Below, piece after piece: positions 15,913-53,742 of a DNA stretch of 64,000 bases (its first letter is position 1; the number at the start of each line of letters is the position of its first letter). Below the pieces are notes generated by a model, which worked only from the letters and a program-made list of their open reading frames with translations, did no database searches and had not been told where the DNA came from. The stretch comes from an uncultured bacterium (GTDB lineage Bacteria; CSSED10-310; CALFER01). Location: the NCBI GenBank assembly GCA_964472395.1, contig CAYYMM010000003.1, forward strand, positions 13,662-77,661, written 5' to 3'. The position numbers and the translations under genes were made by a program.

Positions 15913-16039
15913 TCGTGTGATCCTAAACTCTCAGGGATGATGCCACAGCGTGTGAGGGGACGCAACATGGCTCATCAGCAAAGAGTTGACTGATAAAAAA
16001 GGAGGAGGCAAGATAAAGGTAACAACTCATAGAGCGAAA

Positions 16040-16182
16040 GGGCGGATCGCGATCCGCCCTACCCTGAACCTGTGGCCTGCGGTGCCGAAAGGGCGGATCG
16101 CGATCCGCCCAGACTAGATCCGCCCCTAGATCCGCCCAGACTCATCCTATGGCCACGGGCAAGGGCGGATCGCGATCCGCCC
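16040..16182. repeat. REP-like array: three copies of the perfect 20-bp palindrome GGGCGGATCGCGATCCGCCC plus GATCCGCCC half-sites
   Basis: Palindromes at 16040..16059, 16091..16110 and 16163..16182. Half-sites at about 16121..16140. The flank CCTGTGGCCTGCGGTGCCGAAA is repeated at 16711..16734. Confidence 0.85.
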
Positions 16183-16712: not shown

Positions 16713-16846
16713 TCCTGTGGCCTGCGGTGCCGAAAGGGCGGATCGCGATCCGCCCCTGGATCCTGGATCCGCCCCTGGATCCGCCCCTGGATCCTGGATC
16801 CGCCCCTGGATCCGCCCAGACTCTAGATCCGCCCCTAGATCCGCCC
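16685..16846. repeat. REP-like array 2: two full 20-bp palindromes followed by tandem (CT[GA]GATCCGCCC)n units
   Basis: Palindromes at 16685..16704 and 16736..16755. Eight or more GATCCGCCC units up to 16846. The array overlaps the 3' coding ends of both the RAYT gene and the convergent ABC ATPase gene. Confidence 0.85.
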
Positions 16847-27510: not shown

Positions 27511-30500
27511 CCCCTCCCCGCCCGCACCGCGGCGATCAGCTTCAGGATCAGTTTGCCATACCGTTTCATGAGCGCGGGACCGACGCCCGCCACTCCACCG
27601 AGTTCCTCTTCGGTCAGAGGCTGACGCGCGGCCAGCGCATCGAGCACCTGGTTGCTGAAGATGCGGAAGGCCGGAACTCCCAGGCGACGCGACTCATCGA
27701 GCCTCCATTGCCTGAGTGCCGCATGCACGCTTGCGTCGATCCGCACCGCCGCCGTCCGCCGTTCGACTGGCGCTGTGGTCCGGGATCGAGCGGTTCTCGG
27801 GTTTCTGCCGGATACCGCGCCGGACGGCAGCGCGGGCGCGGTCCGGGACGTTTTCGCGGTTTTTCTGCGCTTCGATGCACGCTTCGCGGTCTGCTTTCTT
27901 GGGTGCGTCAGTTCGATCCCACCCACATCAGCCTGCGTGAGTTCGCGTCCGAGCTTCGCCAGAGCGATCCGCTTGTAGTGAATCGTTTCGCCTTCCTTTT
28001 CGAAGGTCTGCTCGGAAATGCTCACGATCTGATGTCTCGACAGACTGCTCAGAAGCTGTTCCATCTCGTTCCGGACGACGGGATGCGATTCCGAGAGACT
28101 CTTGTGGAGTTGTCCCGCGGTGAGACTGCCCTTGCGTCTGAGTTCACTGACGATGGCCCATATCAGGACTGCCTCGTCCGCATCGGGCGCTCTGCGGGCG
28201 GACGCGACCTGGTCCTGCGGCGCACACACATCGCAGACGCCACAGGGCCCCTCACGGTCGTCCATGTCGCCGAAATGCCGGATCAGCGCCTGCATGCGGC
28301 AGCCCGAACCTTCGGCGAACCGGCTCATTTCCTTGAGCTGAGCCTGGCGGAACGCACGCTGCTCGGCATACGCGAACGTCCAGCCCGCACTGCCGGCCCG
28401 GAACCGGTCATCACCCTCGACGATCGCTCCGCTGTGAATCCAGAGTTTCTCGATCGCATTGTCGAACACCTCGGCATCGATGCGCGTCGCCGCAAGAATC
28501 TCGTCGCGCGTCCGGAACTCCTCACCCAGCGCGGTGAAGATGCGCTCGAGAATCGCGGTTTCGGGGTAATTTTTCTGGAAGAGAAAATCCTGAATGCGCT
28601 GATCGGCATAGGAATGAAACAGAATCGCGCGCGACGGCAGCCCGTCCCGCCCCGCCCGGCCGATTTCCTGATAATAGCCCTCGATGCTCCCCGGCAGCGC
28701 GGCGTGAATGACGGTGCGGATGTCGGGTTTGTCGATCCCCATTCCGAAAGCGATGGTCGCGACGATCACATCGAGTCGTCCTTCGAGGAAGGCAGTCTGA
28801 ACCGCATTCCTCCGGGTGGGCGTCATCCCGGCATGATAGACATCCGCGGAAAAATCGCGGTTGAGGTGTTCCGCGAGCCACTCCGCGTTGCGCCGGGTAG
28901 CCGCATAGACGATCGCGGGGCGGCGCGAGGGGTCGGAGAGGATGGCGCGGGCCGCATCGAGACGCTCGTCGACGGGCCTCCCGACAATCTCGACACCGAT
29001 GTTTGTCCGGCGGAATCCGTGAATGAAACGGCGGGGCGACGGCATCCCGAGCAAGGTCACGATGTCGTCCTGAACGCGGGGGGTGGCGGTGGCCGTCATG
29101 GCGATCACGGGCGCCGAGCGGAACTCGGGGAGACGTTCGCCGAGCATCCGGTAGTCCGGGCGGAAATCGTGCCCCCATTGCGAAATGCAGTGCGCTTCGT
29201 CGACGACGATGAGGCTCGGCGGGTGCTGCTGCAACCGGTGGATGAAGCCCTGAAGCGACAGGCGTTCAGGCGCGATGAACAGATACTGCAACTCACCGGA
29301 TGCGTAGCGATTCATGATCGCATCGTATTCCGATCGTTTTTTGCCCGAATGCACGGCGTCGGATCTCAGTCCCAGCGCGGCGAGCTTGCCGGATTGATCC
29401 TCCATCAGCGCGATCAGAGGGCTGATCACGAGCGCCGACCCGCCTCGGATCAGGGCCGGCAACTGGTAGCAGAGCGATTTGCCCATGCCGGTCGGCATCA
29501 CGAGCAGCGCGTCGGTCCCGCCGATCACGGCCTCGCAGACGGCCTTCTGATACGGGCGGAATGCCGGATAACCGAAGTAATGAGACAGAGCGGTTTCCAG
29601 TGTCGGGGAGTCCGGAGGTAGGGATGGCGGCGCAGGAGACGGTTTTGGTGAGGAAACGGCAAGAGTCACGCTGGGGACGGCCGTTTCGATCGGCAACATG
29701 GGCTGCGTGGCGCTCGGGACAACCGCAGCAATCGCAGGCCGAGGCGCAGCGGCATGCGTGAAAATCCCCCTCACGATGTCCCGCACGTAGGTCTCGATGT
29801 CGCTCATGAATCGATCGAACGGTTCGGCGCCCTTTTCCATGCGCTTGAGCTTATACTCCCAGTCACCGGTCAGTTCCGGACTCCTGACGGAAGGATGCAC
29901 CGTTTCGATCAGCCGGATCCCCTTGTCCGTCGCGGAGAGGCTCTTGCCGTCACGCCGGATGAACTCGCGTTTGATCAGCGTTTCGATGATCGCGGCGCGG
30001 GTCGCGGGGGTGCCGAGTCCCCGTTCTCGCATCGCATCGGAGAGATTCCGGTCATCGAGCGTTTTCCCGGCCGTTTCCATGGCGGTCAGCAGGGTCGCAT
30101 CGGTGAGTCTCTGCGGAGGTCTCGTTTCCTTCTCGACCGCTTCGACCTTCAGAATCGACTGCGATTGCCCCTCAACTAAGGAAGACGGGAGCGAGGGCGC
30201 CTGATCGGAGTCTTTTCGTGCTTTCAATTCCAGAACTTTCCAGCCTTCCTGGCGGACCAGCGTTCCGGATGAGTGAAAGCGATCGGTGAGAGGCTCGGAG
30301 GCAACGTCACTCGTTGAAATCACATCGGTGATGACGGTCGTCTCGAGCGCGATGTGGGGCGGCAGCCAGGCGCACAGAAACCGTCGGCAGATCAGGTCAT
30401 AGAGTTTGAGTTGATCGGCGGTCAGAGTGGCCCGGTCCGCCCGGGTCGGAGTCGGGATGATCGCATGATGATCCGACACTTTGGTGTCATCGACGAACCG

Positions 30501-31640
30501 GTCCGGGATGGGGGGCGCCGGTTCATCGAACGGCCAGTGCGGGCGGTAGTGCGGAGCGACGACGGCGATCACCGGTTCGAGCGTACGGGCGATATCCGTC
30601 GAGAGATGACGCGAGTCGGTGCGGGGATAGCTGATGAGTTTTTTCCCCTCATACAGTTCCTGGGCGATGTCCAGAGTCTTCTGAGCGCTGAAACCGAACA
30701 GACGGTTCGCATGTCGCTGCAGTTCGGACAGGTCATACAGCAGTGGAGGGGCAAACGTGCGCGTTCGCGACGTCAGGGATGCGACGGTGGCTCGACCGGT
30801 TCGGACCCGCGACGCGATGCGCTCGACGAGATCCCGATCGAAGGGCAGGCGCGAGGCATCCCGGAGCGGGTCCTGAGACGTTCCGGTTCGTTTCCGGCGT
30901 TCGGTTTCCGAAAACCAGGTGCCTCGGTATACATCTGTCGTTCTATCCGCATATAGGATCATTTCGGGACGAAAATCCACGATGATCTCGAAGTATTTTT
31001 CAGGCTTGAAGTTCCGGATCGCCAGTTCCCGCTCGACGATCATCGCAAGCGTCGGAGTCTGGACACGGCCGACGGACACGAGATCGTTGCCCCGGATCGT
31101 GTAGGCGCGGGAGAAGTTCATGCCGACCAGCCAGTCGGCGCGGCTGCGGGCGTGGGCGGAACGCGCGAGATTGTCATAGTCGGACGAGGGTTTGAGCGTA
31201 TCGAAACCGCGGCGGATGGCGGCAGGGGTCAGCGATGAGATCCAGAGCCGTCGGACGCGTTTTTTGCATTTTGCGGCTTCGTAGATGTACCGGAAGATCA
31301 GCTCGCCCTCGCGCCCTGCATCCGTCGCGCAGATGATCTCGGAGACATCCTTCCGGTTCATGATCTGACGGACGATGTTGAACTGCTGGGCGGTTTTCTC
31401 GATGACGACCACCGGCCAGTCCGGCGGGATCATGGGGAGCGTCGCGCGGGACCAGGTTTTCCACGAGGCGTTGATCTGATGGGGTTCGGGCAGGGTGACG
31501 AGATGTCCGATGGCCCAGGTGACGATGTATCCGTTTCCTTCGAGGGCACCGGATGCTCCATCGAGTTTTTTCGTGGCACCGAGACAATCCGCGATGTCAC
31601 GGGCGACAGACGGTTTCTCGGCAACGACAGCGACAGGCAT
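27507..31640 (-). CDS. Topoisomerase III (type IA) - RecQ helicase fusion protein, 1377 aa
   Basis: aa 1-628: Toprim (VAEKPSVA, ICATDAGREGE) and topo IA core with active-site LISYPRTDSRHL (Tyr338). aa 629-680: Pro/Ser/Ala linker. aa 681-1377: RecQ DEAH helicase (YPAFRPYQ, MPTGMGKSLCYQLPAL, VVDEAHCISQWGHDFRPDY), RQC zinc module (GSGCRMQ...GPCGVCDVC) and C-terminal HRDC. No stop between the modules. Confidence 0.85.
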   Translation of the reverse strand: MPVAVVAEKPSVARDIADCLGATKKLDGASGALEGNGYIVTWAIGHLVTLPEPHQINASWKTWSRATLPMIPPDWPVVVIEKTAQQFNIVRQIMNRKDVSEIICATDAGREGELIFRYIYEAAKCKKRVRRLWISSLTPAAIRRGFDTLKPSSDYDNLARSAHARSRADWLVGMNFSRAYTIRGNDLVSVGRVQTPTLAMIVERELAIRNFKPEKYFEIIVDFRPEMILYADRTTDVYRGTWFSETERRKRTGTSQDPLRDASRLPFDRDLVERIASRVRTGRATVASLTSRTRTFAPPLLYDLSELQRHANRLFGFSAQKTLDIAQELYEGKKLISYPRTDSRHLSTDIARTLEPVIAVVAPHYRPHWPFDEPAPPIPDRFVDDTKVSDHHAIIPTPTRADRATLTADQLKLYDLICRRFLCAWLPPHIALETTVITDVISTSDVASEPLTDRFHSSGTLVRQEGWKVLELKARKDSDQAPSLPSSLVEGQSQSILKVEAVEKETRPPQRLTDATLLTAMETAGKTLDDRNLSDAMRERGLGTPATRAAIIETLIKREFIRRDGKSLSATDKGIRLIETVHPSVRSPELTGDWEYKLKRMEKGAEPFDRFMSDIETYVRDIVRGIFTHAAAPRPAIAAVVPSATQPMLPIETAVPSVTLAVSSPKPSPAPPSLPPDSPTLETALSHYFGYPAFRPYQKAVCEAVIGGTDALLVMPTGMGKSLCYQLPALIRGGSALVISPLIALMEDQSGKLAALGLRSDAVHSGKKRSEYDAIMNRYASGELQYLFIAPERLSLQGFIHRLQQHPPSLIVVDEAHCISQWGHDFRPDYRMLGERLPEFRSAPVIAMTATATPRVQDDIVTLLGMPSPRRFIHGFRRTNIGVEIVGRPVDERLDAARAILSDPSRRPAIVYAATRRNAEWLAEHLNRDFSADVYHAGMTPTRRNAVQTAFLEGRLDVIVATIAFGMGIDKPDIRTVIHAALPGSIEGYYQEIGRAGRDGLPSRAILFHSYADQRIQDFLFQKNYPETAILERIFTALGEEFRTRDEILAATRIDAEVFDNAIEKLWIHSGAIVEGDDRFRAGSAGWTFAYAEQRAFRQAQLKEMSRFAEGSGCRMQALIRHFGDMDDREGPCGVCDVCAPQDQVASARRAPDADEAVLIWAIVSELRRKGSLTAGQLHKSLSESHPVVRNEMEQLLSSLSRHQIVSISEQTFEKEGETIHYKRIALAKLGRELTQADVGGIELTHPRKQTAKRASKRRKTAKTSRTAPALPSGAVSGRNPRTARSRTTAPVERRTAAVRIDASVHAALRQWRLDESRRLGVPAFRIFSNQVLDALAARQPLTEEELGGVAGVGPALMKRYGKLILKLIAAVRAGRG

Positions 31641-33130: not shown

Positions 33131-33610
33131 ATGGATTATCGGTTGGATGCGAGTTGCGGGTTGTATTGCGGCGCGTGCCCGGTGCTGATTGCCAATAAGA
33201 ACGGAACTCTGGAGGAAGCGGCGAAGCAGTGGAATGCCACACCGGAACAGTTGGTGTGTCACGGGTGCAAGAGCGATGCGGTGTGTTCGTTCTGCACGGA
33301 GTGTCATTTCAAGAAATGCTCGAGTGAAAAGGGGATCGAGTTTTGTTTTGAGTGCGGGGATTTTCCCTGTGAAAAACTGACGGCATTCCGGAACGACGAG
33401 TATCCGCATCACTCGATCATCTTCAAGAACCTAGATGAGATCCGCACGGTCGGAGTCGCTCACTGGCTCACCCTTCAGAAGGAACGCTGGAGTTGTCTGG
33501 AATGTGACACGGAATTCGCGTGGTATTCCGACACGTGCCGCAAGTGTGGCGCACCCGTTTTCAACAGCAAATCCGAAGAACACACAATCAGCCGATCTTC
33601 TGAAAACTGA
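33131..33610 (+). CDS. Cys-rich DUF3795-family protein
   Basis: GGAGGAGACGG RBS then MDYRLDASCGLYCGACPV. Multiple CxxC pairs (CHGC, CSFCTEC, CFECGDFPC, CLEC, CRKCG) typical of DUF3795. Confidence 0.6.
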   Translation: MDYRLDASCGLYCGACPVLIANKNGTLEEAAKQWNATPEQLVCHGCKSDAVCSFCTECHFKKCSSEKGIEFCFECGDFPCEKLTAFRNDEYPHHSIIFKNLDEIRTVGVAHWLTLQKERWSCLECDTEFAWYSDTCRKCGAPVFNSKSEEHTISRSSEN

Positions 33611-33668
33611 AAACTGAAAACCGGAAACTGCCTTGGTTTTCAGTGCGACGTGTTCAGTTTTCAAACAA
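33611..33668. terminator. Hairpin-rich convergent terminator region
   Basis: GAAAACCggaaactgccttGGTTTTC hairpin plus T-rich tails, between convergent genes ending at 33610 and 33674. Confidence 0.4.
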
Positions 33669-33673
33669 GATGG

Positions 33674-35923
33674 TTATTCCCAACCGAATTCAGCCGAACC
33701 AAACTGCCCGATCAGAATGTGAACGGCGGGATCGACCAGCGCGGCATAAAACCTGATTCCTTGAGCAGCTCCGACATTGGATGGCCATGAAAACGATGGC
33801 AGAACCTCTACATCGGTCACGTCTTCCGGGAATGAAGGATACTGAGCCAGGTAGGAATCGAACTCCTGCGTGAATGTCGGACCCCAGAAGTAACTGCCGA
33901 ACACATCCAGCAACACAAGGAGCGGGAAACCGGTCAGGACATCGCCGGTGTTGTTGCAGAAGTGTGCCGTGCAGGTGAATATGTCGCCGGCATGGAAGAC
34001 TGATTGCGACAGATCCAGCGTGACACCCATCTGATCGCAGATGTCGGGATTGGAATGACGGTACACGAAGGTTTCGACCGTCACTTCGCCATGACCGCCT
34101 CCGAAGATGGTGGTGCACTTCTGCGCGGAATCATAAACCATCGCATGTCCGTAATACGGAGCGGCTCGTCCACCTTTAGGCTCGATCAGATACCAATCAT
34201 ACCCGTCCCATTCCCAAGTTTCATCGAAACCGGGTTCCAGGTTTTGAACGCCGCCGTGCATGACAACACGACAACGACGTTGATCAAATGTTAACCTCAG
34301 TTCCTTTCTTCGTGCAGGATTGGTCGTGGCCGGTTCGATCCGCGTCCAGTCGACTCCATCGTATTCCCAAGTCTTGTCGTAGTATCCGTTCTCTGCGCAC
34401 CCTCCGAATAGAACCGCGACGCCTCGACAGCTGTCGAATGCCATTCCAAAGCCCCAGAGCCCCGGTGGATGATGATCCGGAAACACCTGATACCATGTGC
34501 TCCCATCATACTCCCATGTCTCGTCCTCCCACTCCTGATAGGGGGGATCGTTATAGTCGGCAGATACTCCTCCGAACAACATGAGCCTGCCTCGGATGGA
34601 ATCATAGACCATTGTAGCACTGGATCTCGGACCGGGAACGACGGGAGGTGTCAGCTCGTTCCATGTCTGATCTCGAAACACCCACATTTTATCATTGAAA
34701 TAGGCGGGGCCGTCCCATTTCCTTCCGCCGTACAAAACGATCCCATCGTGATCGGCAAAATAGGCCATACAATGACGCGAAACCTGCCCGGGATTGGGTG
34801 ACAGATTGTAACAGGACCACGTTTGTCCATCCCATAGATACGTATCGGTTGACATGCATGAGGATTCAACTCCTCCGTATAGCACAGTTGTTTGTGATGA
34901 GGGATCGTATTCCATGTTGTGTCCGCCGAGATCAGGCGGATAATAGGGGTCTGGCGTTACATAGGTCCAGTCCACTCCGTCGTAGAACCAAGTGTCACCA
35001 AACAATTCTGGAGTGTGTGATCCACCGAACAGCATTAGTTGCCGTGATCCGGCATCCCATGTCGCTGCAAAACCTGATCGACCAGATGGTTTATGTGGTG
35101 GGTTCATTTCGTGCCATTGAACACCGTCGAATTCCCACGTGTCATCATAATTTCCGTTGCCGCTGAATAGAACAATCACAGAACGGTCCGGATCGTAAAC
35201 AATACGTTGCACTATCCGTACGGGTGGTCGAGGAGGACTTACCTCCGGATTTTCCCACTGCGAACCATCCCAGTACCATAACTCCAATTTCCCATTAAAG
35301 TCTAACAGAACTACCACCTTCTCGATATCGGGATTATAGATCATCCCAGAAATAAACATCGCCGGAGGCCAAGGATTCGATTTCGGAATTTGATGCCATT
35401 CATCCTGATCCCATTCCCAAAGGTCGTCGAGTGCATCCTCTGAAGTCCCCCCGAAAACACAGATTACATCTCGATTACTGTCATAAGCCAAACTGTAATA
35501 TGTCCACTTCGAAGGAAGGAAATCGCTCTCGTCGATCAAAGACCAATCAGAGTAAGTCCATTCCCAAATTTGAAACAAACTATCCGGATATCTACTACCG
35601 AGCAGAAGAATTCGATTATGCATGGAATCGAACAATAAAGCTGGTTCTCCCCAAAAAACATCAGGAATGTGTTCTCTCAATCGAAAATTCCATCTAGTTC
35701 CATCCCATTCCCACGTATCACTAAGATGGCTTCCGGAGTGTCCTCCAAAAAGCAGCACTGTGCCTGTCTCAGGGTTATAGCATATGCTGGAACCGCTTCG
35801 TGGAGTCAACGGCTTCCCGATCTGCACCCATTCCATCGAGGAGGAGATTACATGGTCCGGATGTGCAAAGCACAAACATGAAAGCAAGATGATTAAACCA
35901 GTATTGGTTTTTACACTGCTCAT
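33674..35923 (-). CDS. Secreted Kelch/galactose-oxidase-like beta-propeller repeat protein, paralog 1, with conserved ~120-aa C-terminal domain
   Basis: GAGGAGG RBS then MSSVKTNTGLIILLSCLCFA signal peptide. About 11 Kelch-like blades (LLFGG..., WEWDG/WEYDG). C-terminal block CDQMGVTLDL...FGWE. Confidence 0.8.
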   Translation of the reverse strand: MSSVKTNTGLIILLSCLCFAHPDHVISSSMEWVQIGKPLTPRSGSSICYNPETGTVLLFGGHSGSHLSDTWEWDGTRWNFRLREHIPDVFWGEPALLFDSMHNRILLLGSRYPDSLFQIWEWTYSDWSLIDESDFLPSKWTYYSLAYDSNRDVICVFGGTSEDALDDLWEWDQDEWHQIPKSNPWPPAMFISGMIYNPDIEKVVVLLDFNGKLELWYWDGSQWENPEVSPPRPPVRIVQRIVYDPDRSVIVLFSGNGNYDDTWEFDGVQWHEMNPPHKPSGRSGFAATWDAGSRQLMLFGGSHTPELFGDTWFYDGVDWTYVTPDPYYPPDLGGHNMEYDPSSQTTVLYGGVESSCMSTDTYLWDGQTWSCYNLSPNPGQVSRHCMAYFADHDGIVLYGGRKWDGPAYFNDKMWVFRDQTWNELTPPVVPGPRSSATMVYDSIRGRLMLFGGVSADYNDPPYQEWEDETWEYDGSTWYQVFPDHHPPGLWGFGMAFDSCRGVAVLFGGCAENGYYDKTWEYDGVDWTRIEPATTNPARRKELRLTFDQRRCRVVMHGGVQNLEPGFDETWEWDGYDWYLIEPKGGRAAPYYGHAMVYDSAQKCTTIFGGGHGEVTVETFVYRHSNPDICDQMGVTLDLSQSVFHAGDIFTCTAHFCNNTGDVLTGFPLLVLLDVFGSYFWGPTFTQEFDSYLAQYPSFPEDVTDVEVLPSFSWPSNVGAAQGIRFYAALVDPAVHILIGQFGSAEFGWE

Positions 35924-36037
35924 CCCGAACCTCCTCTCTGCTATAGAGAATAACCCCAACATTTAGTCAGATCAAATCAGAACATGAATGCCGACTGGGA
36001 AAAAAGCACGGGCACGGTGACCTCCCGTCCGAACCAT

Positions 36038-36080
36038 GATTTGTGCAAATCAAAAGTTTAACTTTCATTTTGCACAAATC
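36038..36080. promoter_or_regulatory. Perfect 12-bp inverted repeat (GATTTGTGCAAA-N19-TTTGCACAAATC), candidate operator
   Basis: Lies 18 nt upstream of the ATPase ATG at 36098, in the divergent promoter region shared with Kelch paralog 1. Confidence 0.4.
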
Positions 36081-36097
36081 TGCCGTATTCTCAGATC

Positions 36098-37291
36098 ATG
36101 ATCAATCGAGATATATCCAAAGAATTGATTCGATCCGCCACGGAGTATCCCGTGGTGACCATTCTCGGACCGCGCCAGTCGGGCAAGACCACCCTGACCC
36201 GAATGACGTTCCCCAATAAGCCCTATTTTTCTCTTGAGGATCCTGATGTCCGGATGGCGGCCGAGGCCGACCCGCGGGGCTTTCTTGCACAAATGGAGAA
36301 CGGCGGTATTTTGGACGAGGTGCAACGCCTCCCGATTCTGCTTTCCTATATCCAGGGGATGGTCGACAAAACCACGCAACGCGGTCGTTTCATCCTGACT
36401 GGAAGCCATCAACCGCAGCTCCATGAGGCTATCAGCCAGTCGTTGGCGGGCCGCACGGCCATCTTGGTTCTATGGCCGTTTTCCCTTCGTGAGATTCGCC
36501 AGTACGATTCGGTCCGAGACCCCTTCGATTTAATCCATCAGGGCTTTTTCCCCAGGCTTCACGAGGAGAATCTGGAAGCGCGCCGGTTTTTCAACGGCTA
36601 CCTGCAGACCTACGTTGAGAGGGATGTCCGCGCCTTGATTCAGTTGCGTGATTTATCGCTGTTTCAGAAATTTCTCACCCTTTTGGCCGGACGGGTGGGA
36701 CATATCGTCAATCTCGCTTCGCTTGGCAATGATGTCGGCGCTTCCGGAACGACGATCAGAAACTGGCTATCCGTTCTGAAGGCATCCTATGTTGTGTTTG
36801 AACTTCCCCCGTTTTTCGAGAATGTTCATAAACGTGTGATCAAGTCGCCAAAAATCTATTTCACCGACGTTGGCCTCGCCGCGTTTCTACTCGGCATCCA
36901 TACATCGGAGCACGTTTCACGTGACCCTTTGCGCGGAAATCTTTATGAGAACCTCATCATCGCCGAAATCGTGAAAAGCGCATTGAACCGTGGAATCAGA
37001 CCTGAGATCTATTTCTTCCGTGATTCCCACGGCAACGAGATCGATCTGCTGGTCAAGGAAAAAGGTGTGCTCACGCCGGTTGAGATCAAGTCTGCTGCGA
37101 CATTTACCACGGATTATCTCCGGCAAATCGAAATGTTTCGAACACTGGGCATCCGGCGTGTTGCGCCTGGTGCGATCCTTTATAACGGCGAGCAAACATT
37201 CAATGTGCGAGGCATCCGTGTCATCAATCCATTCCAGGTGGAAGACATCTGGCAGACCTTGACCGAATTCCCTGAACAAGAAACCACATGA
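36098..37291 (+). CDS. AAA-family ATPase with DUF4143 C-terminal domain
   Basis: Walker A GPRQSGKTT. Architecture typical of AAA_14 + DUF4143 ATP-binding proteins, which are often in mobile or defence neighbourhoods. Confidence 0.7.
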   Translation: MINRDISKELIRSATEYPVVTILGPRQSGKTTLTRMTFPNKPYFSLEDPDVRMAAEADPRGFLAQMENGGILDEVQRLPILLSYIQGMVDKTTQRGRFILTGSHQPQLHEAISQSLAGRTAILVLWPFSLREIRQYDSVRDPFDLIHQGFFPRLHEENLEARRFFNGYLQTYVERDVRALIQLRDLSLFQKFLTLLAGRVGHIVNLASLGNDVGASGTTIRNWLSVLKASYVVFELPPFFENVHKRVIKSPKIYFTDVGLAAFLLGIHTSEHVSRDPLRGNLYENLIIAEIVKSALNRGIRPEIYFFRDSHGNEIDLLVKEKGVLTPVEIKSAATFTTDYLRQIEMFRTLGIRRVAPGAILYNGEQTFNVRGIRVINPFQVEDIWQTLTEFPEQETT

Positions 37292-37421
37292 TTTCGAACC
37301 GAAAATCGAGTGTTTCGATGCCGGTCAGACCGATCAGCGGCAACTCCTTCACCGCGCTGATCAGCCTGAGGCGCCAGTTTCCCCTATATTCGCCGCTGGA
37401 TTGTTCAGCGCCTATGGATTG

Positions 37422-39686
37422 TTATTCCCACCCGAACTCAACCATATCCAGCTGACCGATCAGAATGTGAACAGCAGGATCGACCAGCGCGGCATAGAAC
37501 CTGATTCCTTGAGCAGCTCCGACATTGGAGGGCCAGGAGAATGACGGGAGCACCTCCACATCGGTGATCCCTTCCGGAAATGAAGGATACCGGGCCAGAT
37601 AGGAATCGAACTCCGGAGTGAAGGTCGGACCCCAGAAGTAACTCCCAAATACATCCAGCAACACGAGGAGTGGGTAGCCGGTCAGAACATCGCCGGTGTT
37701 GTTGCAGATGTGCGCCGTGCAGGTGAACGTGTCACCGGCATGAAAGAGTGATTGCGACAGATCCAAGGTCACACCCATCTGATCGCAGATGTCGGGATTG
37801 GAATGACGGTACACGAAGGTTTCGACGGTGATTCCTTGCTGTCCGCCGCCATAGATCATTGAGCATTTCCTGGCTGAATCATAGATCATGGCGGTTGAAT
37901 GATAGGGAGCTGCGCGTCCACCCGTGGGCTCGATCAGATACCAGTCATACCCATCCCATTCCCATGTTTCATCGAAACCGGGCTCCAGGTTTTGAACACC
38001 GCCATGCATGACAACTCGGCATCGGTGTTGATCGAATGTGAATCCAAGGCTCTTACGTCGTGCAGGATTTGTTGTGGCCGGTTCGATCCGGGTCCAGTCG
38101 ACTCCATCGTATTCCCAGGTCTTGTCATAGTATCCGTTCTCAGCGCACCCTCCGAACAGAACCGTGACGCCTCGACAGCTGTCGAATGCCATTCCAAAGC
38201 CCCAGAGCCCTGGAGGATGATGATCCGGATACACCTGATACCAGGTTGTCCCATTATACTCCCACGTCTCGTCTTCCCACTCCTGCTCATAATAATAAGG
38301 TGGCTCGTAATAGAATGCAGACACACCTCCAAACAAGACGAGTCGTCCCCGAATGGAATCATAGACCATAGCAGCATTGGATCTCGGACCTGGAACGGCG
38401 GGAGGTGTCAGCTCATTCCAAGTCTGATCTCGGAAGACCCACATCCTATCAGAGGATAAGTCTGGCCCCTCCTGAGCATAACCACCATATAGAACGACAC
38501 CATTGAGAGAAGTCATATAAGCCATACAATGTGACCGAATCAAACCTGGAGTGACTGGCAAGTTGATTCCTGTCCAGAGTTGACTATCCCAAATAAATGT
38601 CTCGGTTGACATATATGAGGATTCAACTCCTCCGTATAGCACAGTTGTTTGCGCTAAGGGATCATATGCCATGTTGTGTCCACCAAGATCAGGCGGATAG
38701 TAGGGGTCCGGTGCTACAGACGTCCAGTCCACGCCATTATAAAACCAAGTGTCTCCGAAGTTTTCCCCTGCAACATTTCCTCCTCCGAAAAGCATGACTC
38801 GATTCGTTCGAGCATCCCATGTTGCTGAGTAATTTGATCGAGCGGAGGGTTTGTGCGGTGGGTTTATCTCGTTCCATTGAACACCGTCGAATTCCCACGT
38901 GTCATCATAGTTGCTTTCTCCGCTGAACAAAACAATTACCGAGCGTTCCGGATCGTAAACAATATTCTCCGCCCACCGTACGGGTGGTCGAGGAGGACTC
39001 ACCTCCGGATTTTCCCACTCCGAACCATCCCAATTCCAAAACTCAAATATTCCATTGTATTCTAACAGAACCACCACCTTCTGGATATCAGAATTGTAAA
39101 TCATCCCCGTACCAATCTTATCTGGAGGCCAGGGATTCGATCTCGGAATCCGATGCCATTCCTCCTGATCCCATTCCCAAAGGTCAGGGTGCTCAAACAA
39201 TGTATATCCATCAAACACGCAGATTACATTTCGATGACTATCATACGCAAAACTGTAGTATGAGCAGTCTTCAGGAAACGAGCTATTCTCATCGATCAGT
39301 GACCAGTCCGTACCAGTCCATTCCCAGATCTGGAACACGCTGTCAGATATTCGTCTTCCGAACAGTAAAATGCGATTGTTCAGTGTGTCGTAAACCATGG
39401 AAGCATTTCCCCAGAGTTGGTTCGGACTATGCTCCGTCAAACGAAAATTCCATTTTACTCCGTCCCATTCCCAGGTATCAGTAAGTTCGGATCCCGTATT
39501 TCTTCCGCCAAAAAGCAATACTGTGTTTGACTCAGGATTATAGCAGATCTCTAAACCACTTCGTGGAGTCAGCGGCTTCCCGATCTGCACCCATTCCATC
39601 GAGGAGGAGATTACATGGTCCGGAAGTGCAAAGCACAAACATGAAAGCAAGATGATCCATCCAAGTATGTTCTTGACCGTACTCAT
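37422..39686 (-). CDS. Secreted Kelch-like beta-propeller repeat protein, paralog 2, with conserved C-terminal domain
   Basis: GAGGAGA RBS then MSTVKNILGWIILLSCLCFA. Same architecture as paralog 1. Long nucleotide blocks identical to paralog 3. Confidence 0.8.
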   Translation of the reverse strand: MSTVKNILGWIILLSCLCFALPDHVISSSMEWVQIGKPLTPRSGLEICYNPESNTVLLFGGRNTGSELTDTWEWDGVKWNFRLTEHSPNQLWGNASMVYDTLNNRILLFGRRISDSVFQIWEWTGTDWSLIDENSSFPEDCSYYSFAYDSHRNVICVFDGYTLFEHPDLWEWDQEEWHRIPRSNPWPPDKIGTGMIYNSDIQKVVVLLEYNGIFEFWNWDGSEWENPEVSPPRPPVRWAENIVYDPERSVIVLFSGESNYDDTWEFDGVQWNEINPPHKPSARSNYSATWDARTNRVMLFGGGNVAGENFGDTWFYNGVDWTSVAPDPYYPPDLGGHNMAYDPLAQTTVLYGGVESSYMSTETFIWDSQLWTGINLPVTPGLIRSHCMAYMTSLNGVVLYGGYAQEGPDLSSDRMWVFRDQTWNELTPPAVPGPRSNAAMVYDSIRGRLVLFGGVSAFYYEPPYYYEQEWEDETWEYNGTTWYQVYPDHHPPGLWGFGMAFDSCRGVTVLFGGCAENGYYDKTWEYDGVDWTRIEPATTNPARRKSLGFTFDQHRCRVVMHGGVQNLEPGFDETWEWDGYDWYLIEPTGGRAAPYHSTAMIYDSARKCSMIYGGGQQGITVETFVYRHSNPDICDQMGVTLDLSQSLFHAGDTFTCTAHICNNTGDVLTGYPLLVLLDVFGSYFWGPTFTPEFDSYLARYPSFPEGITDVEVLPSFSWPSNVGAAQGIRFYAALVDPAVHILIGQLDMVEFGWE

Positions 39687-40081
39687 CCTGATCTCCTCTC
39701 TGCCATCGAGAATAACCCGATCATTTATGCAGATCAAATCAGAACATGAGATGATCAGACATGCAAGGAAAAGTCATAGGATATGACCTCTACGTTGTTT
39801 TCTATCGGGACTTGACTGAGGATCACGGTCGAACGCATCTCGTAACGCTCTTCGATCACGATGCGTTTCTTTCTGACATGCCGACACGTCGGACACCAGC
39901 CGCGCTGTCGAATCTGGTGGCCACGTAGAATCGGAATTACTTACCAACCGGGGAGGAAGCGGTCGTCTATTCCTGATCGAATTCTATGTGTTGTTTTCAG
40001 GTGCTCGCGAACCCGGAATCACTGCTCGCATTTTACCGGAATTGAAAGTGCTCGCGGCCGGAATATGCACGAAAAGAGAGA

Positions 40082-40504
40082 TCAGTGGTTTCGGGAGTTT
40101 GCGAGGACCTGATTGAGTTTCAGGTCTGAGATCCTATTGAAATGACGAAGGTTTCCGGTGATAAGTTCCAAATCATGTTCGATGGCTGTAGCTGCAATCT
40201 GAATATCTGCGTCAGGGAGGATTACACCAGTATCTTCAAGATTAGCTCGGATTTTACCAAAAACCTTCGCTGTGATGATGTCGAAAGGTAAAACGGTGAC
40301 AGCAGGTAAAACACGTTGCTCGATATTGGTCAGGTGTCGTTCGCGATCACGGGCGCGATATGCACCTTTGTATAACTCACCTATTACAACAGCACTCGTG
40401 AATTGCTCTTCACGCGCAACTTTCATAATCCATTTCACATAAGCTGTTGCAGGGTGTGGGCGGAGAAGTTCCGAAATTGCATCCGTATCAAAGAGGAATG
40501 CCAT
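40082..40504 (-). CDS. vapC: VapC-type PIN-domain toxin
   Basis: MAFLFDTDAISELLRP... PIN fold with conserved acidic residues (FDTD, ...DADIQIAATAIEHDLELITGN). Confidence 0.8.
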   Translation of the reverse strand: MAFLFDTDAISELLRPHPATAYVKWIMKVAREEQFTSAVVIGELYKGAYRARDRERHLTNIEQRVLPAVTVLPFDIITAKVFGKIRANLEDTGVILPDADIQIAATAIEHDLELITGNLRHFNRISDLKLNQVLANSRNH

Positions 40505-40787
40505 TTTTTTGTTCCAGATCCGGAGTATCACGCTGACCCTGTCGAGGAGAAGCGCTGAGGATAGAAACCAGCTCTTCGCTGTTTTCCCAACCCCCAGCAA
40601 TACTGGCAAGTCCACTCCCTGGTCCTGCTTTTCTCAAACGCTCAAGATGTTCGAGGTCACTCGGGCTGACAAGAGCAGCGACAGGTTTACCATGTCTGGT
40701 TATCAGCACAGCATTGCCTGCTTGAACTTTGCGAATGCATTCTGAAAAAGTTGCTTTGGCCTCAGCCACGGAAATGTTCTTCTCCAT
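40488..40787 (-). CDS. Phd/YefM-family antitoxin
   Basis: AAGGAGG RBS. ISVAEAKATFSECIRKVQAGNAVLITRHGKPVAALVSPSDLEHLERL matches Phd/YefM. 17-nt overlap with vapC. Confidence 0.75.
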   Translation of the reverse strand: MEKNISVAEAKATFSECIRKVQAGNAVLITRHGKPVAALVSPSDLEHLERLRKAGPGSGLASIAGGWENSEELVSILSASPRQGQRDTPDLEQKNGIPL

Positions 40788-40803
40788 AATCGGCCTCCTT
40801 TAT

Positions 40804-40825
40804 GGTCATTATAACCATTATGACC
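40804..40825. promoter_or_regulatory. Imperfect palindrome GGTCATTATAACCATTATGACC, candidate TA operator
   Basis: GGTCAT...ATGACC arms immediately upstream of the antitoxin RBS; typical position for TA autoregulation. Confidence 0.35.
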
Positions 40826-41147
40826 TAAATATCAAGAATATGATTGAGACAATCGTATCACTTGCGTTGCTCACAACCTCGGAGCTTCCTACACATCGGG
40901 GATTCGCGCGTCGGCACCCAATGATCGATCGTCATGGTAGCCTTCATTCCAATGCGGATTGAACACAACCTTCAAATATGCAGCTCGTTTGAAGAATAAC
41001 ACGAAGAATCAATCCACCCGCCTTGCCAATAGGGTTCGAAACGGACACATTCCAGACTCGCAGAATCAAGTTCAATAGTGACGTCAATGTCGTGTATGAG
41101 CTCATGGACTGAGGAAATGGCGAACAACAACGTGGAGGTTTCGTCTG

Positions 41148-43394
41148 TTATTCCCACCCGAACTCAACCATATCCAACTGCCCGATCAGAATGTGAACGG
41201 CGGGATCGACCAGTGCGGCATAAAACCTGATTCCTTGAGCAGCTCCGACATTGGATGGCCAGGAGAATGACGGGAGCACCTCCACATCGGTGATCCCTTC
41301 CGGAAATGAAGGATACCGGGCCAGATAGGAATCGAACTCCGGAGTGAAGGTCGGACCCCAGAAGTAACTCCCAAATACATCCAGCAACACGAGGAGTGGG
41401 TAGCCGGTCAGAACATCGCCGGTGTTGTTGCAGATGTGCGCCGTGCAGGTGAACGTGTCACCGGCATGAAAGAGTGATTGCGACAGATCCAAGGTCACAC
41501 CCATCTGATCGCAGATGTCGGGATTGGAATGACGGTACACGAAGGTTTCGACCGTCACTTCGCCATGACCGCCTCCGAAGATGGTGGTGCACTTCTGCGC
41601 GGAATCATAAACCATCGCATGTCCGTAATACGGAGCGGCTCGTCCACCATTCGGCTCGATCAGATACCAGTCATACCCGTCCCATTCCCATGTTTCATCG
41701 AAACCGGGCTTCAGGTTTTGAACACCGCCATGCATGACAACACGACAACGACGGTGATCAAATGCTAACCTCAGATCCTTCCTTCGTGCAGGGTTGGTTG
41801 TGGCCGGTTCGATCCGGGTCCAGTCGACTCCAGTGTACTCCCAGGTCTTGTCATAGTATCCGTTTTCAGCACATCCTCCGAACAGAACCGTGACGCCTCG
41901 ACAACTGTCAAAAGCCATCCCAAAGCCCCAGAGTCCCGGAGGATGATGATCCGGAAACACCTGATACCATGTGCTCCCATCGTACTCCCACGTCTCGTCT
42001 TCCCACTCCTGATAGGGGGGATCGTTATAGTCGGCAGACACGCCTCCGAACAGCACGAGCTTCCCTCGGATGGAATCATAGGCCATCTCAGCGCCAGCTC
42101 TCGGACCGGGAACGACGGGAGGTGTCAGCTCGTTCCATGTCTGATTGCGGAACACCCACATTTTATCATTGAAATAGGCGGGGCCGTCCCATTTCCTTCC
42201 GCCATACAATACGATCCCATCGTGATCGGCAATGTAAGCCATACAATGAACGGAAATCTGACCGGGATTGGGTGACAAACTGTAACCAAACCACGTTTGC
42301 CCATCCCACAGATATGTCTCGGTTGACATGTATGAGGATTCAACTCCTCCGTATAGCACAGTTATTTGTGATGAGGGATCGTATGCCATGTTGTGTCCGC
42401 CGAGATCAGGCGGATAATAGGGGTCTGGCGTTACATAGGTCCAGTCCACTCCGTCGTAGAACCAGGTATCTCCGAATTTCTCCCCTGCATCATTCCCTCC
42501 ACCGAAGATCATGACTCGATTCGTTCGAGCATCCCACGTCGATGCGTAACCTGATCGAGCGGAGGGTTTGTGGGGTGGATCGACCTCGTTCCATCGCGTG
42601 CCGTTGAATTCCCAAGTTTCTTCACTCCAACTCTGACCACCATACATAACCATAGAGGATCGAATCGGATCGAATTCTATTCTCGAACCGCTTCGTTCAG
42701 TCGGATGCGGACCAGATATCTCCGGTTTCTCCCAAACAGAGCCATCCCAATACCAGGGGTCTATCTGTCCGTTGTAATTATCAAAGGCAATCACTCTATG
42801 GATCTCTGAGTTATACGCCAAACCGGCTAATGATAATCCTTGTGGCCAAGGGGTCGATTTCGGTATCTGATGCCATTCGCTTTGATCCCACTCCCAAAGT
42901 TCATATCTGGAAGTGTCTGTATGCCCTCCGAACAAACAGATGACATCACGCTCTTCGTCATATACCGACCGAAAGTAAACCCATCTCAAAGGGAGCAAAT
43001 CGCTCTCGTCGATAAGTGTCCAGTCATTATCTGCCAATTGCCAGATTTGAAATTGTTGCCCGGGATCGACATATCCAGTTAACAGTAACCTATTATTCAA
43101 GGAATCATACAGTAACGCTGGTAGTCCGTAGAAATCTTTGGGCGTGTGAGGTGTCGAGATAAAATTCCACCGCACACCATCCCATTCCCATGTTTCAATG
43201 TCTTCAACGCCTACAGAGTATCCACCGAATAGAAACACTGAGTCGGTTGCTGGATTATAGCAAATGCTGGAACCATATCGTGTAATCAACGGCTTTCCGA
43301 TCTGCACCCATTCCATTGATGATGAGAAAGTACTCTCCGGTATCGACACACACATCCATATCAGCAAAATGACGGGTCCTGCATTCGGCTTCAC
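41148..43394 (-). CDS. Secreted Kelch-like beta-propeller repeat protein, paralog 3 (mosaic of paralogs 1 and 2), with conserved C-terminal domain
   Basis: GTG start with signal peptide KPNAGPVILLIWMCVSIPESTFS. 5' coding blocks nearly identical at nucleotide level to paralog 2 (41246..41556 vs 37520..37830) and to paralog 1 (41521..41645 vs 34046..34170). Confidence 0.8.
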   Translation of the reverse strand: MKPNAGPVILLIWMCVSIPESTFSSSMEWVQIGKPLITRYGSSICYNPATDSVFLFGGYSVGVEDIETWEWDGVRWNFISTPHTPKDFYGLPALLYDSLNNRLLLTGYVDPGQQFQIWQLADNDWTLIDESDLLPLRWVYFRSVYDEERDVICLFGGHTDTSRYELWEWDQSEWHQIPKSTPWPQGLSLAGLAYNSEIHRVIAFDNYNGQIDPWYWDGSVWEKPEISGPHPTERSGSRIEFDPIRSSMVMYGGQSWSEETWEFNGTRWNEVDPPHKPSARSGYASTWDARTNRVMIFGGGNDAGEKFGDTWFYDGVDWTYVTPDPYYPPDLGGHNMAYDPSSQITVLYGGVESSYMSTETYLWDGQTWFGYSLSPNPGQISVHCMAYIADHDGIVLYGGRKWDGPAYFNDKMWVFRNQTWNELTPPVVPGPRAGAEMAYDSIRGKLVLFGGVSADYNDPPYQEWEDETWEYDGSTWYQVFPDHHPPGLWGFGMAFDSCRGVTVLFGGCAENGYYDKTWEYTGVDWTRIEPATTNPARRKDLRLAFDHRRCRVVMHGGVQNLKPGFDETWEWDGYDWYLIEPNGGRAAPYYGHAMVYDSAQKCTTIFGGGHGEVTVETFVYRHSNPDICDQMGVTLDLSQSLFHAGDTFTCTAHICNNTGDVLTGYPLLVLLDVFGSYFWGPTFTPEFDSYLARYPSFPEGITDVEVLPSFSWPSNVGAAQGIRFYAALVDPAVHILIGQLDMVEFGWE

Positions 43395-43686
43395 GGTTAT
43401 CGTCCCATGCCTCCTATCTGCATCCGAGAATATCCGCCGCGTTCCACCGGGTCAACTCAGTCTCTCGGATTCATCTCCCGCTGCGCCCCAACGAACGCAT
43501 CCGATCTATGCACGATGGATATGTAAAAAATCGCTTATCTGAATGAACGCATCCGGAGTCCCGGCCGTTCCTGCTCAACCGCATAAACGGCCTTGGAGAC
43601 TGGCACGGTTGGGCTCTGTATCAATAAACCGAATTAAGTAAGGTGTCCCTTTATTTCGCTAAACTGAAAACTGAAAACCGAAAACC

Positions 43687-53582: not shown

Positions 53583-53742
53583 CGCTTCTCCTTTGATCTA
53601 CGTGTGTCATTCGCATTCTCATCCTCATTCGCCGGTTTGTCAATGGACAACATGACTGAACACACCCCTCATGCCGCCAAACTTTCATTGAGAACACACG
53701 TAATTCCAAATGAATGGTCTGTCATCCTTCCGGGAGGTGTCT

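Follow-up and report, generated by a model that had tools for sequence, protein, structure and literature searches.

Mosaic Kelch paralogs of differing copy number in an accessory island of an uncultivated bacterium

The Kelch genes, their C-terminal domain and upstream regions

Three minus-strand genes of the window, which is the whole 64,000-nucleotide stretch of DNA analysed here, encode Kelch-repeat proteins (K1, K2, and K3; Table 1). Open reading frames and Pfam Kelch models bear out the coordinates and the length of about 750 aa given for them in the first-pass annotation, and PF24681 is matched by all three at 124–139 bits (gathering cut-off 50). The AlphaFold2 model of K3 (pLDDT 87.8) matches the six-bladed Kelch domains of KLHDC2 and LZTR1 in Foldseek, with a TM of about 0.77, and the 12 blades of each protein probably form two six-bladed propellers. 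Signal peptides had been proposed for all three genes and are supported from sequence features alone: a basic N-region, a hydrophobic stretch, and an 'SS|MEW' junction that is present family-wide. The proteins are predicted to be exported and located at the cell surface, where the propellers would have a putative ligand-binding role without catalysis. The host is an uncultivated bacterium of Gram-negative type.

Each protein ends in a C-terminal domain (CTD) of 127 aa, modelled as a beta-sandwich (pLDDT 87.3), for which searches of Pfam, NCBIfam, and PDB sequences gave no match. The position of the CTD is modular: it is found at the end of over 2,000 protein clusters, whose extracellular domains are diverse. 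The window holds a fourth copy, which closes an unrelated secreted protein of 500 aa (51282..52784) that gave no match in a Pfam search. In homologs with only about 50–59% identity over the whole protein, amino acid identity in the CTD is 64–79%. One possibility is that the CTD is a sorting or anchoring module not described before. It resembles the C-terminal domains of type IX secretion system (T9SS) cargo in being a beta-sandwich that closes many otherwise unrelated secreted proteins at their very C-terminus, in having partners that include a C25 (gingipain-family) peptidase, beta-helix/PMP proteins, and propellers, and in often following a Pro/Thr-rich linker. Unlike T9SS tails, it has no sequence match to the NCBIfam or Pfam T9SS tail models, is larger (about 125 aa, against about 70–100 aa), and carries three near-invariant cysteines and a terminal GW-x-E motif.

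A 20-mer had been noted as part of a conserved 5′ leader, and in plus-strand writing it lies at 35968..35987 upstream of K1 and at 39730 upstream of K2. On the gene strand it covers a −35-like hexamer, TTGATC, within about 75 conserved nt that hold a promoter-like site and a ribosome-binding site; the version of this stretch at K3 is weaker. The leader is thus present upstream of K1 and K2, but as a duplicated promoter and ribosome-binding region, not as the mark of a variation family. For K1 and K2, the promoter-like sites were read from an alignment of the regions upstream of K1, K2, K3, and R1 (the intact copy of the sister population, below); the promoter scan reported the K3 site only. 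A palindrome in the divergent K1/DUF4143 intergenic region may be an operator.

Table 1. Features of the Kelch locus and related sites in the window
Feature	Position	Strand	Description and evidence
K1	33674..35923	-	749 aa; signal peptide, 12 Kelch blades, CTD; ORF, translation, Pfam Kelch models, CTD profile
K2	37422..39686	-	754 aa; signal peptide, 12 Kelch blades, CTD; ORF, translation, Pfam
K3	41148..43394	-	748 aa; GTG start, 12 Kelch blades, CTD; clearest mosaic
CTD-coding part of K1	about 33677..34057	-	CTD profile match, 224 bits
CTD-coding part of K2	about 37425..37805	-	CTD profile
Fourth CTD copy	52425..52781	+	39% identical; tblastn; CTD profile, 177 bits
Exact K3/K2 tract, 296 nt	41257..41552 = 37531..37826	-	Almost wholly inside CTD
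Exact K3/K1 tract, 152 nt	41497..41648 = 34023..34174	-	Blade 12 and CTD start
K3 5′ third		-	Unlike K1 and K2
K3 segment	42604..42514	-	K2-like
K3 segment	42484..41560	-	K1-like
K3 segment	41560..41170	-	K2-like
K1 promoter-like site and leader	35924..36000	-	TTGATC-17-TATTCT, then AGAGGAGG ribosome-binding site
K2 promoter-like site and leader	39687..39765	-	Homologous to that of K1; 20-mer at 39730..39749
K3 promoter-like site and ribosome-binding site	43395..43460	-	TTGACC-17-TATTCT at 43455..43427; diverged copy of the K1/K2 leader
Palindrome (pair I1)	36038..36080	.	21-nt arms, 86% complementary; inverted-repeat search
AAA_14 and DUF4143 ATPase	36098..37291	+	Pfam; PADLOC PDC-S01, E=1e-98; PMC12988326, PMC3424549
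VapC-type PIN toxin	40082..40504	-	140 aa; Pfam PIN; start set from L091 (sister) ortholog; 17-nt overlap with Phd end
Phd/YefM (PhdYeFM) antitoxin	40488..40787	-	Pfam
Heptamer array (CTGAAAA) x4.4	33600..33630	.	K1-side island border; TRF; also in sister
Heptamer array (CTGAAAA) x3.6	43661..43685	.	K3-side island border, directly after ParA stop codon; TRF; also in sister

The surrounding island

Between the Kelch copies, Pfam identifies the DUF4143 ATPase and the Phd-VapC pair that had been reported there. Upstream of the Phd/YefM gene are a promoter-like site (40835..40808; 11/12 matches in the promoter scan) and a 9-nt tandem repeat (40807..40825; TRF). In comparison with the sister population, synonymous divergence (pS) is 0.020 for the PIN toxin and 0.028 for the antitoxin. 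The ATPase gene matches the PDC-S01 model (PADLOC; an AAA ATPase joined to a PD-(D/E)XK-like domain, DUF4143) over its full length, with E=1e-98. PDC-S01 is a PADLOC 'guilt-by-embedding' candidate, and most such candidates still await experimental validation (PMC12988326). The gene is an unvalidated defence candidate that sits among the Kelch genes.

GC3 is 0.52–0.54 in the Kelch genes, 0.38–0.40 in the toxin-antitoxin genes, and 0.61 in the DUF4143 gene, compared with 0.71–0.75 in the core-type flanking genes (TopoIII-RecQ, ParA, Na/H exchanger, and GH44). This low GC3, the differences in copy number and content in the sister, and the PADLOC candidacy of the ATPase support the earlier suggestion of a recombination-prone accessory island. 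Both borders carry the same heptamer array, the pattern search giving five overlapping 14-mer matches (0.01 expected by chance), grouped at the two borders plus one site with 1 mismatch at 47330. The array at 33600..33630 contributes to an imperfect hairpin whose other side is 33635..33657 (inverted repeat I2).

Mosaic structure and the sister population

The near-identity reported between K3 (41246..41556) and K2 (37520..37830) is confirmed, with 308 of 311 nt the same. The block reported as identical between K3 and K1 is also identical, but not at the K1 coordinates 34046..34170, which as written match at 30/125 positions because the register is one base off; in the corrected register, 41521..41645 equals 34047..34171 (125/125). 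The exact K3/K2 and K3/K1 tracts overlap over 56 nt, the first 56 of 41497..41648, and these are the same in all three genes, therefore the K2-to-K1 crossover falls there. Alignment of the three loci, as had been suggested, maps exact tracts of 296, 152, 79, 56, 53, and 52 nt, with divergence that is not uniform and a closest partner that changes along the genes.

At the 618 informative sites compared among K1, K2, and K3, discordant sites are clustered into 240 runs, against 404±11.6 expected, and the longest runs are of 35 and 36 sites; 0 out of 10,000 shuffles reached this clustering and none produced runs as long. Tracts were defined from three or four sequences, and the pairings carry no donor/recipient direction. 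For each paralog pair, pS swings from 0.00 to about 1.0 along the genes, with zero-pS tracts adjoining tracts of pS 0.5–1.0, which indicates patchy gene conversion and not protein-level conservation. Together with the switching of partners, this bears out the proposal of recent segmental conversion.

Comparison among MAGs, also suggested in the first-pass annotation, shows that the sister population differs in Kelch copy number and gene content. At this locus it has only one intact copy (R1) and one frameshifted, internally deleted remnant, and a unit comprising one Kelch copy plus the DUF4143 gene is missing (L091, L001). In the remnant, which retains its 3′ end, a 17-nt TWEWDG microhomology holds the junction of blade 1 with blade 11, at which 1 nt has been lost. 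R1 is itself a mosaic, being K1-like at nt 0–300 (92–96%), K2-like at 765–1035 (96–100%), and unlike all three at 1080–1660. Flanking genes differ between the window and the sister at pS 0.11–0.29, which makes the zero-pS tracts more recent than the split from the sister. The positional orthologs K1 and R1 have a pS of 0.445, higher than the flanking genes, consistent with recombination having brought in divergent sequence. Over the central part of the CTD, K2 and K3 are 100% identical, whereas K3 is 87% identical to its positional ortholog, the remnant, and K1 is 90% identical to R1. More distant Kelch homologs (51–59% identical) are single-copy at their loci.

Origin of the mosaics

Assembly artefact, in which chimeric joins would arise where shared repeats led the assembler from one paralog or co-existing strain to another, is very unlikely. 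The source contig is metagenome-assembled, the assembler broke sister contigs inside Kelch genes (L001, L002, and L004), therefore the region is hard to assemble, and the exact repeats of 152–296 nt are longer than common k-mer sizes. However, a repeat is output twice only when both of its contexts are in the reads, therefore the identical blocks themselves are real. Each of the three ORFs also runs unbroken through about 2.25 kb, without a frameshift at any junction, the mosaicism extends beyond exact repeats to many levels of divergence (80–100%), L091 is contiguous over the whole locus, and the similarly mosaic R1 is 99.8–100% identical across three separately assembled samples (L001, L091, and L092). 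It is more improbable still, to the point of being scarcely credible, that these are old duplicates without recent exchange, with identical blocks kept by strong purifying selection on the CTD and last blades. The longest identical tracts do lie in the most conserved region, yet across about 100 codons of the CTD K2-K3 pS is 0.00 where K1 shows pS 0.3–0.55 and pN <= 0.07, the partner changes from K2 to K1 within the conserved region, and 296 successive matches at roughly 88% per-site identity would be expected by chance at about 1e-17. Based on the synonymous sites, this reading was rejected, since protein-level selection cannot erase synonymous differences.

The first-pass annotation likened the genes to a contingency or surface-variation family with conserved N- and C-termini and a variable core. 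Variability is instead a gradient along the protein, with 52–69% of positions variable among K1, K2, and K3 in blades 1–5, 24–32% in blades 9–12, and 12% in the CTD. An array generating frequent variants of a surface propeller, like pilE/pilS, vlsE, or bab, with decayed copies as donor cassettes and phages or predators as the selective force, would be in keeping with this much more variable N-terminal propeller, with features usual in secreted or surface proteins (signal peptides, a modular C-terminal domain), with positional orthologs that diverge faster than flanking genes, with a truncated sister remnant whose 3′ end could make it a donor, and with defence-type neighbours. Such programmed variation is nevertheless unlikely. 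All three window copies are complete, each with a promoter-like site, ribosome-binding site, and signal peptide, therefore there is no division into expression site and silent cassettes. No simple-sequence repeats were found in the Kelch genes and leaders, nor inverted repeats for inversion (invertons) or a nearby recombinase. Whole-gene dN/dS is 0.20–0.28 (pN/pS about 0.3), no 30-codon window along the paralogs has pN > pS, and variable residues are not enriched in the presumed ligand-binding B-C and D-A loops of the Kelch binding face (odds ratio 1.4, Fisher p about 0.18). The largest identical tracts fall outside the variable part, in blade 12 and the conserved CTD, and their effect is to make the copies more alike, not more varied.

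It is likely that the locus is a small, unstable paralog family shaped by patchy gene conversion and by copy birth and death, within an accessory island. The three same-strand copies would serve as substrates for general homologous recombination, presumably of RecA type, with short non-reciprocal transfers of tens to about 300 nt between paralogs layered at different ages. Unequal or intragenic recombination between copies or blades would add, delete, or truncate copies, and the outcome would be concerted evolution, seen as local identity within one genome, along with birth and death of copies, in a compositionally atypical island shared with the Phd-VapC module and the PDC-S01 defence candidate. 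Paralogs copying DNA into one another is a real yet familiar evolutionary route, with no sign here of programmed variation.

Similar processes are seen in the bab genes of Helicobacter pylori, in which RecA-type intragenomic chimeras form and strains differ in copy number and locus occupancy; this species is a host-associated pathogen, and its Bab proteins are beta-barrel adhesins in the outer membrane, which have glycans as known ligands and are subject in addition to phase variation through dinucleotide repeats. Intragenomic gene conversion there acts on full-length outer-membrane-protein paralogs, babA, babB, and babC (PMC3444412, PMC4552749). The Kelch genes are likewise several full-length, separately located paralogs encoding exported proteins with conserved ends, although they encode Kelch propellers in an uncultivated environmental bacterium, they have no simple-sequence repeats, and their newest tracts homogenise the conserved 3′ part. 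In Neisseria pilE/pilS, Borrelia vlsE, and Treponema tprK, one expressed locus is accompanied by many promoterless partial cassettes, variation is of high frequency, and dedicated cis elements are often required. Segmental non-reciprocal transfer gives mosaics in these systems as in the Kelch genes, and the sister has a truncated, non-functional copy, but the three window copies are complete and look as if each could be expressed on its own, and they showed no cis element.

Concerted evolution by gene conversion is established for duplicated bacterial genes such as tufA/tufB and the rRNA operons, and was reportedly reviewed by Santoyo and Romero in 2005. As in such genes, the Kelch paralogs within a genome are locally closer than orthologs between genomes and have zero-synonymous tracts. 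In the Kelch genes, however, homogenisation is only partial and patchy, and the N-terminal propeller is highly diverged, with pS near saturation.

Kelch propeller genes and their mosaic structure

Three minus-strand ORFs encoding Kelch-propeller paralogs, K1, K2, and K3, are present where the first-pass annotation had placed them. Pfam Kelch propeller models match all three proteins over residues about 40–615, far beyond curated thresholds; PF24681 reaches 124–139 bits against a cut-off of 50, and PF24981, Kelch_3, and Kelch_4 are likewise over cut-off. Signature repeats of ~50 aa accompany these matches, with 10–11 W-x-W-D-G-x-x-W motifs in each protein. The AlphaFold2 model of K3 (pLDDT 87.8, pTM 0.80) has twelve four-stranded blades followed by a C-terminal beta-sandwich, and in Foldseek ~330 of its columns align to the six-bladed Kelch domains of KLHDC2 and LZTR1 (TM about 0.77). 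Together, the blade count and this alignment suggest a probable architecture of two six-bladed propellers in K1–K3. The galactose oxidase name comes only from generic Kelch repeat models titled 'galactose oxidase, central domain' in Pfam. Galactose oxidase itself, a catalytic seven-bladed propeller with a Cu site, a Tyr-Cys cofactor, and flanking domains 1 and 3, is missing from the top 50 Foldseek matches of the K3 model, and K1–K3 combine Kelch repeats with a C-terminal domain (CTD) and have no catalytic domain.

The N-terminus of K1–K3 is basic, then hydrophobic, and is followed by an SS|MEW junction found family-wide. The 'LLSC' cysteine of K1 and K2 is not kept in homologs, which makes it unlikely that K1 and K2 are lipoproteins. 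Close members of the family are 49–59 % identical, of equal length, carry the CTD, and come from MAGs only. The protein database includes the exact K1 sequence, without a recorded encoding contig; a scan of metagenome contigs with generic WEWDG patterns from the family alignment returned only distant Kelch proteins (25–38 % identity).

Coordinates of the features in the window and, where available, of their counterparts on contig L091 of the sister population.
Feature	Window position	Strand	L091 position
K1	33674..35923	-	
K2	37422..39686	-	
K3	41148..43394	-	
CTD of K1	33677..34057		
CTD of K2	37425..37805		
CTD of K3	41151..41531		
Fourth CTD copy, 39 % identical	52425..52781		
500-aa secreted protein	51282..52784		
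AAA_14+DUF4143 ATPase	36098..37291	+	
Phd antitoxin	40488..40787		
PIN toxin	40082..40504		
Phd-VapC pair	40082..40787		7365..8070
Border heptamer arrays, (CTGAAAA)n	33600..33630 and 43661..43685		5960..5990 and 10680..10715
Single heptamer site, 1 mismatch	47330		
Palindrome	36038..36080		
TopoIII-RecQ	27507..31640	-	
Tyrosine integrase	2310..3512	+	
tRNA-Glu(TTC) and tRNA-Lys(TTT)	3531..3690	-	
Direct repeat	16038..16137 and 16683..16786		
GH44 glycoside hydrolase	47787..49979		
GH44 C-terminus	49880..49979		
C25 peptidase	53710..58581		
C25 peptidase, last ~90 residues	58300..58581		

K3 had been described as a patchwork of K2 and K1 produced by recent segmental gene conversion. The K2-like block, 41246..41556 in K3 and 37520..37830 in K2, is identical at 308 out of 311 positions. 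The K1-like block, K3 41521..41645, is identical at 125 out of 125 positions to K1 34047..34171; the K1 coordinates first reported were one base off and give 30 out of 125. The longest exact tracts extend over 296 nt with K2 (K3 41257..41552 = K2 37531..37826) and 152 nt with K1 (K3 41497..41648 = K1 34023..34174). The switch of partner is placed in the 56-nt overlap of these tracts, because K1, K2, and K3 all agree there. In a sliding-window comparison, the nearest paralog shifts repeatedly along the genes: K1 and K2 are the closest pair in the 5′ third, K2 and K3 at K3 42604..42514, K1 and K3 at 42484..41560, and K2 and K3 again at 41560..41170.

Discordant sites are clustered, the 618 informative sites forming 240 runs compared with 404±11.6 in 10,000 shuffles, and no shuffle produced runs as long as the longest observed, of 35 and 36 sites. 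For whole genes, the paralogs have pS of about 0.45–0.475, pN of 0.14–0.18, and dN/dS of 0.20–0.28, and in Nei-Gojobori windows every pair spans pS values between 0.00 and about 1.0. Tracts with zero synonymous divergence adjoin tracts in which it is high; in the codons of the CTD, K2 and K3 have pS=0 and K1 differs from them with pS of 0.3–0.55 and pN of no more than 0.07. Identity at synonymous sites is not explained by protein conservation and therefore indicates recent non-reciprocal exchange. The clustering of discordant sites and the zero-pS tracts beside high-pS tracts thus support the proposed gene conversion.

The island and its counterpart in the sister population

Pfam agrees with the earlier description of the genes between the Kelch copies as a DUF4143 ATPase and a Phd-VapC pair. 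The ATPase is a candidate defence gene, matching PADLOC PDC-S01 (PDLC04790, E=1.1e-98, residues 1–372 of 397). As a single-gene defence candidate PDC-S01 is very common; it joins an ATPase and a PD-(D/E)XK-like domain in one protein (PMC12988326, PMC3424549), and most candidates of this type still await experimental validation (PMC12988326). In the toxin-antitoxin module, the antitoxin gene (PF02604, 50 bits) lies just upstream of the PIN toxin gene (PF01850, 62 bits) and overlaps it by 17 nt, as in Phd/YefM-VapC modules, with a promoter-like site upstream (11/12 matches). Between the divergent starts of K1 and the DUF4143 gene there is a near-perfect palindrome with 21-nt arms, which may be an operator.

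The sister population, a related bacterium with a syntenic locus, is sampled by a CALFER01 MAG (L001, L002, and L004) and by two contigs, L091 and L092. Gene order in its flanks matches that of the window, the flanking genes having pS of 0.11–0.29. L091 spans the locus without a break and carries ParA, a Kelch remnant, Phd-PIN, the intact Kelch gene R1 (the positional ortholog of K1), DUF3795, DUF169, GrpB, and TopoIII-RecQ; neither the DUF4143 gene nor a third Kelch copy is present at this locus. In the remnant, blade 1 is fused to blade 11 within a 17-nt microhomology encoding TWEWDG, with the loss of 1 base at the fusion causing a frameshift. The same junction is present in L004, which was assembled independently. 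A further Kelch copy, R2 (L002), is on a separate 3.5-kb contig with another downstream gene. Loci of this kind break up metagenome assemblies, and that of the sister MAG is fragmented exactly at its Kelch genes.

R1 is itself a mosaic, K1-like at nt 0–300 (92–96 %) and K2-like at nt 765–1035 (96–100 %) and 1710–1800, and its nt 1080–1660 resemble none of the window copies. The pS between K1 and R1 (0.445) is higher than that of the flanking genes, which fits the import of divergent sequence by recombination. Midway through the CTD, K2 and K3 are 100 % identical, compared with 87 % for K3 and its positional ortholog, the remnant, and 90 % for K1 and R1. On the sequences compared, this pattern is one of concerted evolution, paralogs being closer than positional orthologs, locally and not gene-wide. 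The Phd-VapC pair has a pS of 0.02–0.03 between the window and the sister, about ten times below the flanking genes, which suggests that the module was recently exchanged between the two lineages.

GC3 is 0.52–0.54 in the Kelch genes, 0.38–0.40 in Phd and PIN, and 0.61 in the DUF4143 gene, against 0.71–0.75 in the core-type flanks (TopoIII-RecQ, ParA, Na/H exchanger, and GH44); GrpB and DUF3795, which adjoin K1, are intermediate (0.58–0.64). This atypical composition and the differences from the sister in copy number and content bear out the suggestion of a recombination-prone accessory island. An origin as a mobile element was considered and rejected, since the island has no match in plasmid and phage collections (megablast). 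The same heptamer array lies at both outer borders of the 10-kb island and also at both borders in the sister. Elsewhere in the window there is one site with a mismatch, where 0.01 matches are expected by chance; the arrays may form a terminator-like hairpin, belong to an intergenic repeat specific to the lineage, or be a trace of the insertion of the island.

More distant Kelch-CTD homologs have one copy per locus. In two of these relatives, a ~1300-aa gene without a Pfam domain precedes the single-copy Kelch-CTD gene in divergent orientation (L009 5914..9855 and L093 5958..9857, both minus strand); it is conserved in relatives of this type and has no counterpart at the window Kelch copies. 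In other genomes of the lineage, PIN toxin-antitoxin modules are found again only a few kb from Kelch-CTD homologs: L090 (12413..14072), L009 (17845..19344), and L091 (18277..18919). This association may reflect just a high density of toxin-antitoxin modules, as they are found elsewhere in the loci too.

Candidate mechanisms of surface variation

The assembled sequence supports a reading of the Kelch trio as patchy gene conversion with copy gain and loss in a secreted-protein family. The first-pass annotation went further, likening the trio to a contingency or surface-variation gene family. There is variation from strain to strain, but no sign of a dedicated mechanism, and a reading as programmed variation is not supported. 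The conserved 5′ leader cited in its favour does exist, as a ~75-nt stretch common to K1, K2, and R1 and weaker in K3; what it contains is a promoter-like site (TTGATC-17-TATTCT) together with the ribosome-binding site AGAGGAGG. Both sites accompany each of K1, K2, and K3, as do a start codon and a putative signal peptide. Because these leader elements are on every copy, each would appear to be independently expressible. Cassette-type antigenic variation, with one expression locus and silent donors as in pilE/pilS and vlsE, would call for donors that are truncated or lack a promoter, and a truncated Kelch gene is found in the sister population only; all three window copies are complete. Phase variation through simple sequence repeats is likewise not indicated, TRF at a minimum score of 30 finding just the border heptamer arrays and three short 2-copy repeats, and none in the Kelch genes or leaders.

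An inverton or shufflon is not indicated: the only inverted repeats are short (16–23 nt) and imperfect, the Kelch copies are directly oriented, and Pfam scans identified no recombinase in or adjoining the island. The sole integrase in those scans is 30 kb away, beside two tRNA genes; an integrated element may have its border at that site, which seems to have no connection with the Kelch island. For a diversity-generating retroelement, self-BLAST of the window revealed no partial copy beyond K1–K3, and no reverse transcriptase is among the subset of window ORFs scanned. An RNA element in the leaders is not favoured either, no Rfam family matching within the island. Diversifying selection focused on the top-face loops is not evident, since comparing the B-C and D-A loops with all other positions yields an odds ratio of 1.4 (p about 0.18, both propellers) and variable residues are scattered through the strands as well as the loops. 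Among the recent tracts, the clearest make the conserved 3′ end more uniform and do not diversify the variable 5′ propeller. The closest analogue is babA/babB of H. pylori, in which there is intragenomic recombination among full-length paralogs (PMC3444412, PMC4552749); phase-variable repeats and known ligands set the bab genes apart from the Kelch trio. The trio shows no new mechanism; it is a clean, quantified case of patchy conversion plus copy gain and loss in the secreted proteins of an uncultivated bacterium.

The C-terminal domain and other features of the window

The last 127 residues of K1–K3, the CTD, have three invariant cysteines and end in FGWE, a GW-x-E motif. A fourth copy closes an unrelated secreted protein. 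The CTD has no sequence match in Pfam (isolated CTD, E<=10), NCBIfam (full Kelch proteins, E<=0.01), or PDB sequences. It does not match the T9SS sorting tails (NCBIfam/TIGRFAM type A or B; Pfam Por_Secre_tail), and Foldseek finds generic Ig-like and E-set folds only (TM 0.45–0.5). Word-indexed searching with the isolated CTD recovered only 2 proteins. In a full HMMER scan across 1.84 billion representative proteins, the CTD profile identified 2,043 at E<=1e-3, 262 of them at E<=1e-30, the more than 2,000 CTD-bearing protein clusters being defined at 50 % identity. In 143 out of the 157 retrieved sequences with a CTD, the domain ends within 3 residues of the C-terminus. It often follows a Pro/Thr-rich linker, and its partners include beta-helix/PMP repeats, Kelch, FG-GAP, FGE-sulfatase, BNR, and C25 and S8 peptidases.

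From this modular terminal position, the CTD may serve as a sorting or anchoring module not described before. If so, it would define the surface proteome of a lineage that is poorly known, perhaps together with a secretion route, and this widespread domain is a more useful lead than conversion in the Kelch trio. A broader view is rather unlikely, namely that the CTD is a new surface-display signal for many proteins and the Kelch trio one family of its cargo, with the N-terminal propeller kept diverse from strain to strain by recombination between intact and decayed paralogs under phage or predator pressure. Such pressure would match the place of the trio next to defence-type genes.

Genes for an outer-membrane efflux protein and for components of MacB-type transporters lie in the window, and the organism is therefore diderm. 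At the C-terminus of the GH44 glycoside hydrolase, …VPLTGPVSGVLLLLVISLIIVRKRH, an LPXTG-like motif precedes a hydrophobic helix and then a basic tail, resembling a sortase/exosortase-type signal in this diderm organism. The 1623-aa C25 (gingipain-family) peptidase also carries Kelch repeats; its C-terminus is CTD-like by eye (…YGLFYF…PSFP…FYAA…) and under the detection limit of the CTD profile. The flanking TopoIII-RecQ protein (1377 aa) is a Toprim/topoisomerase III fused to a RecQ helicase (DEAD, Helicase_C, RecQ_Zn_bind, and HRDC). This fusion is widespread, with thousands of full-length matches, and the nearest named relatives, from Acidobacteriota MAGs, are only about 50 % identical. In addition, the window contains a direct repeat of ~100 nt, the copies of which are 91 % identical and ~650 nt apart.
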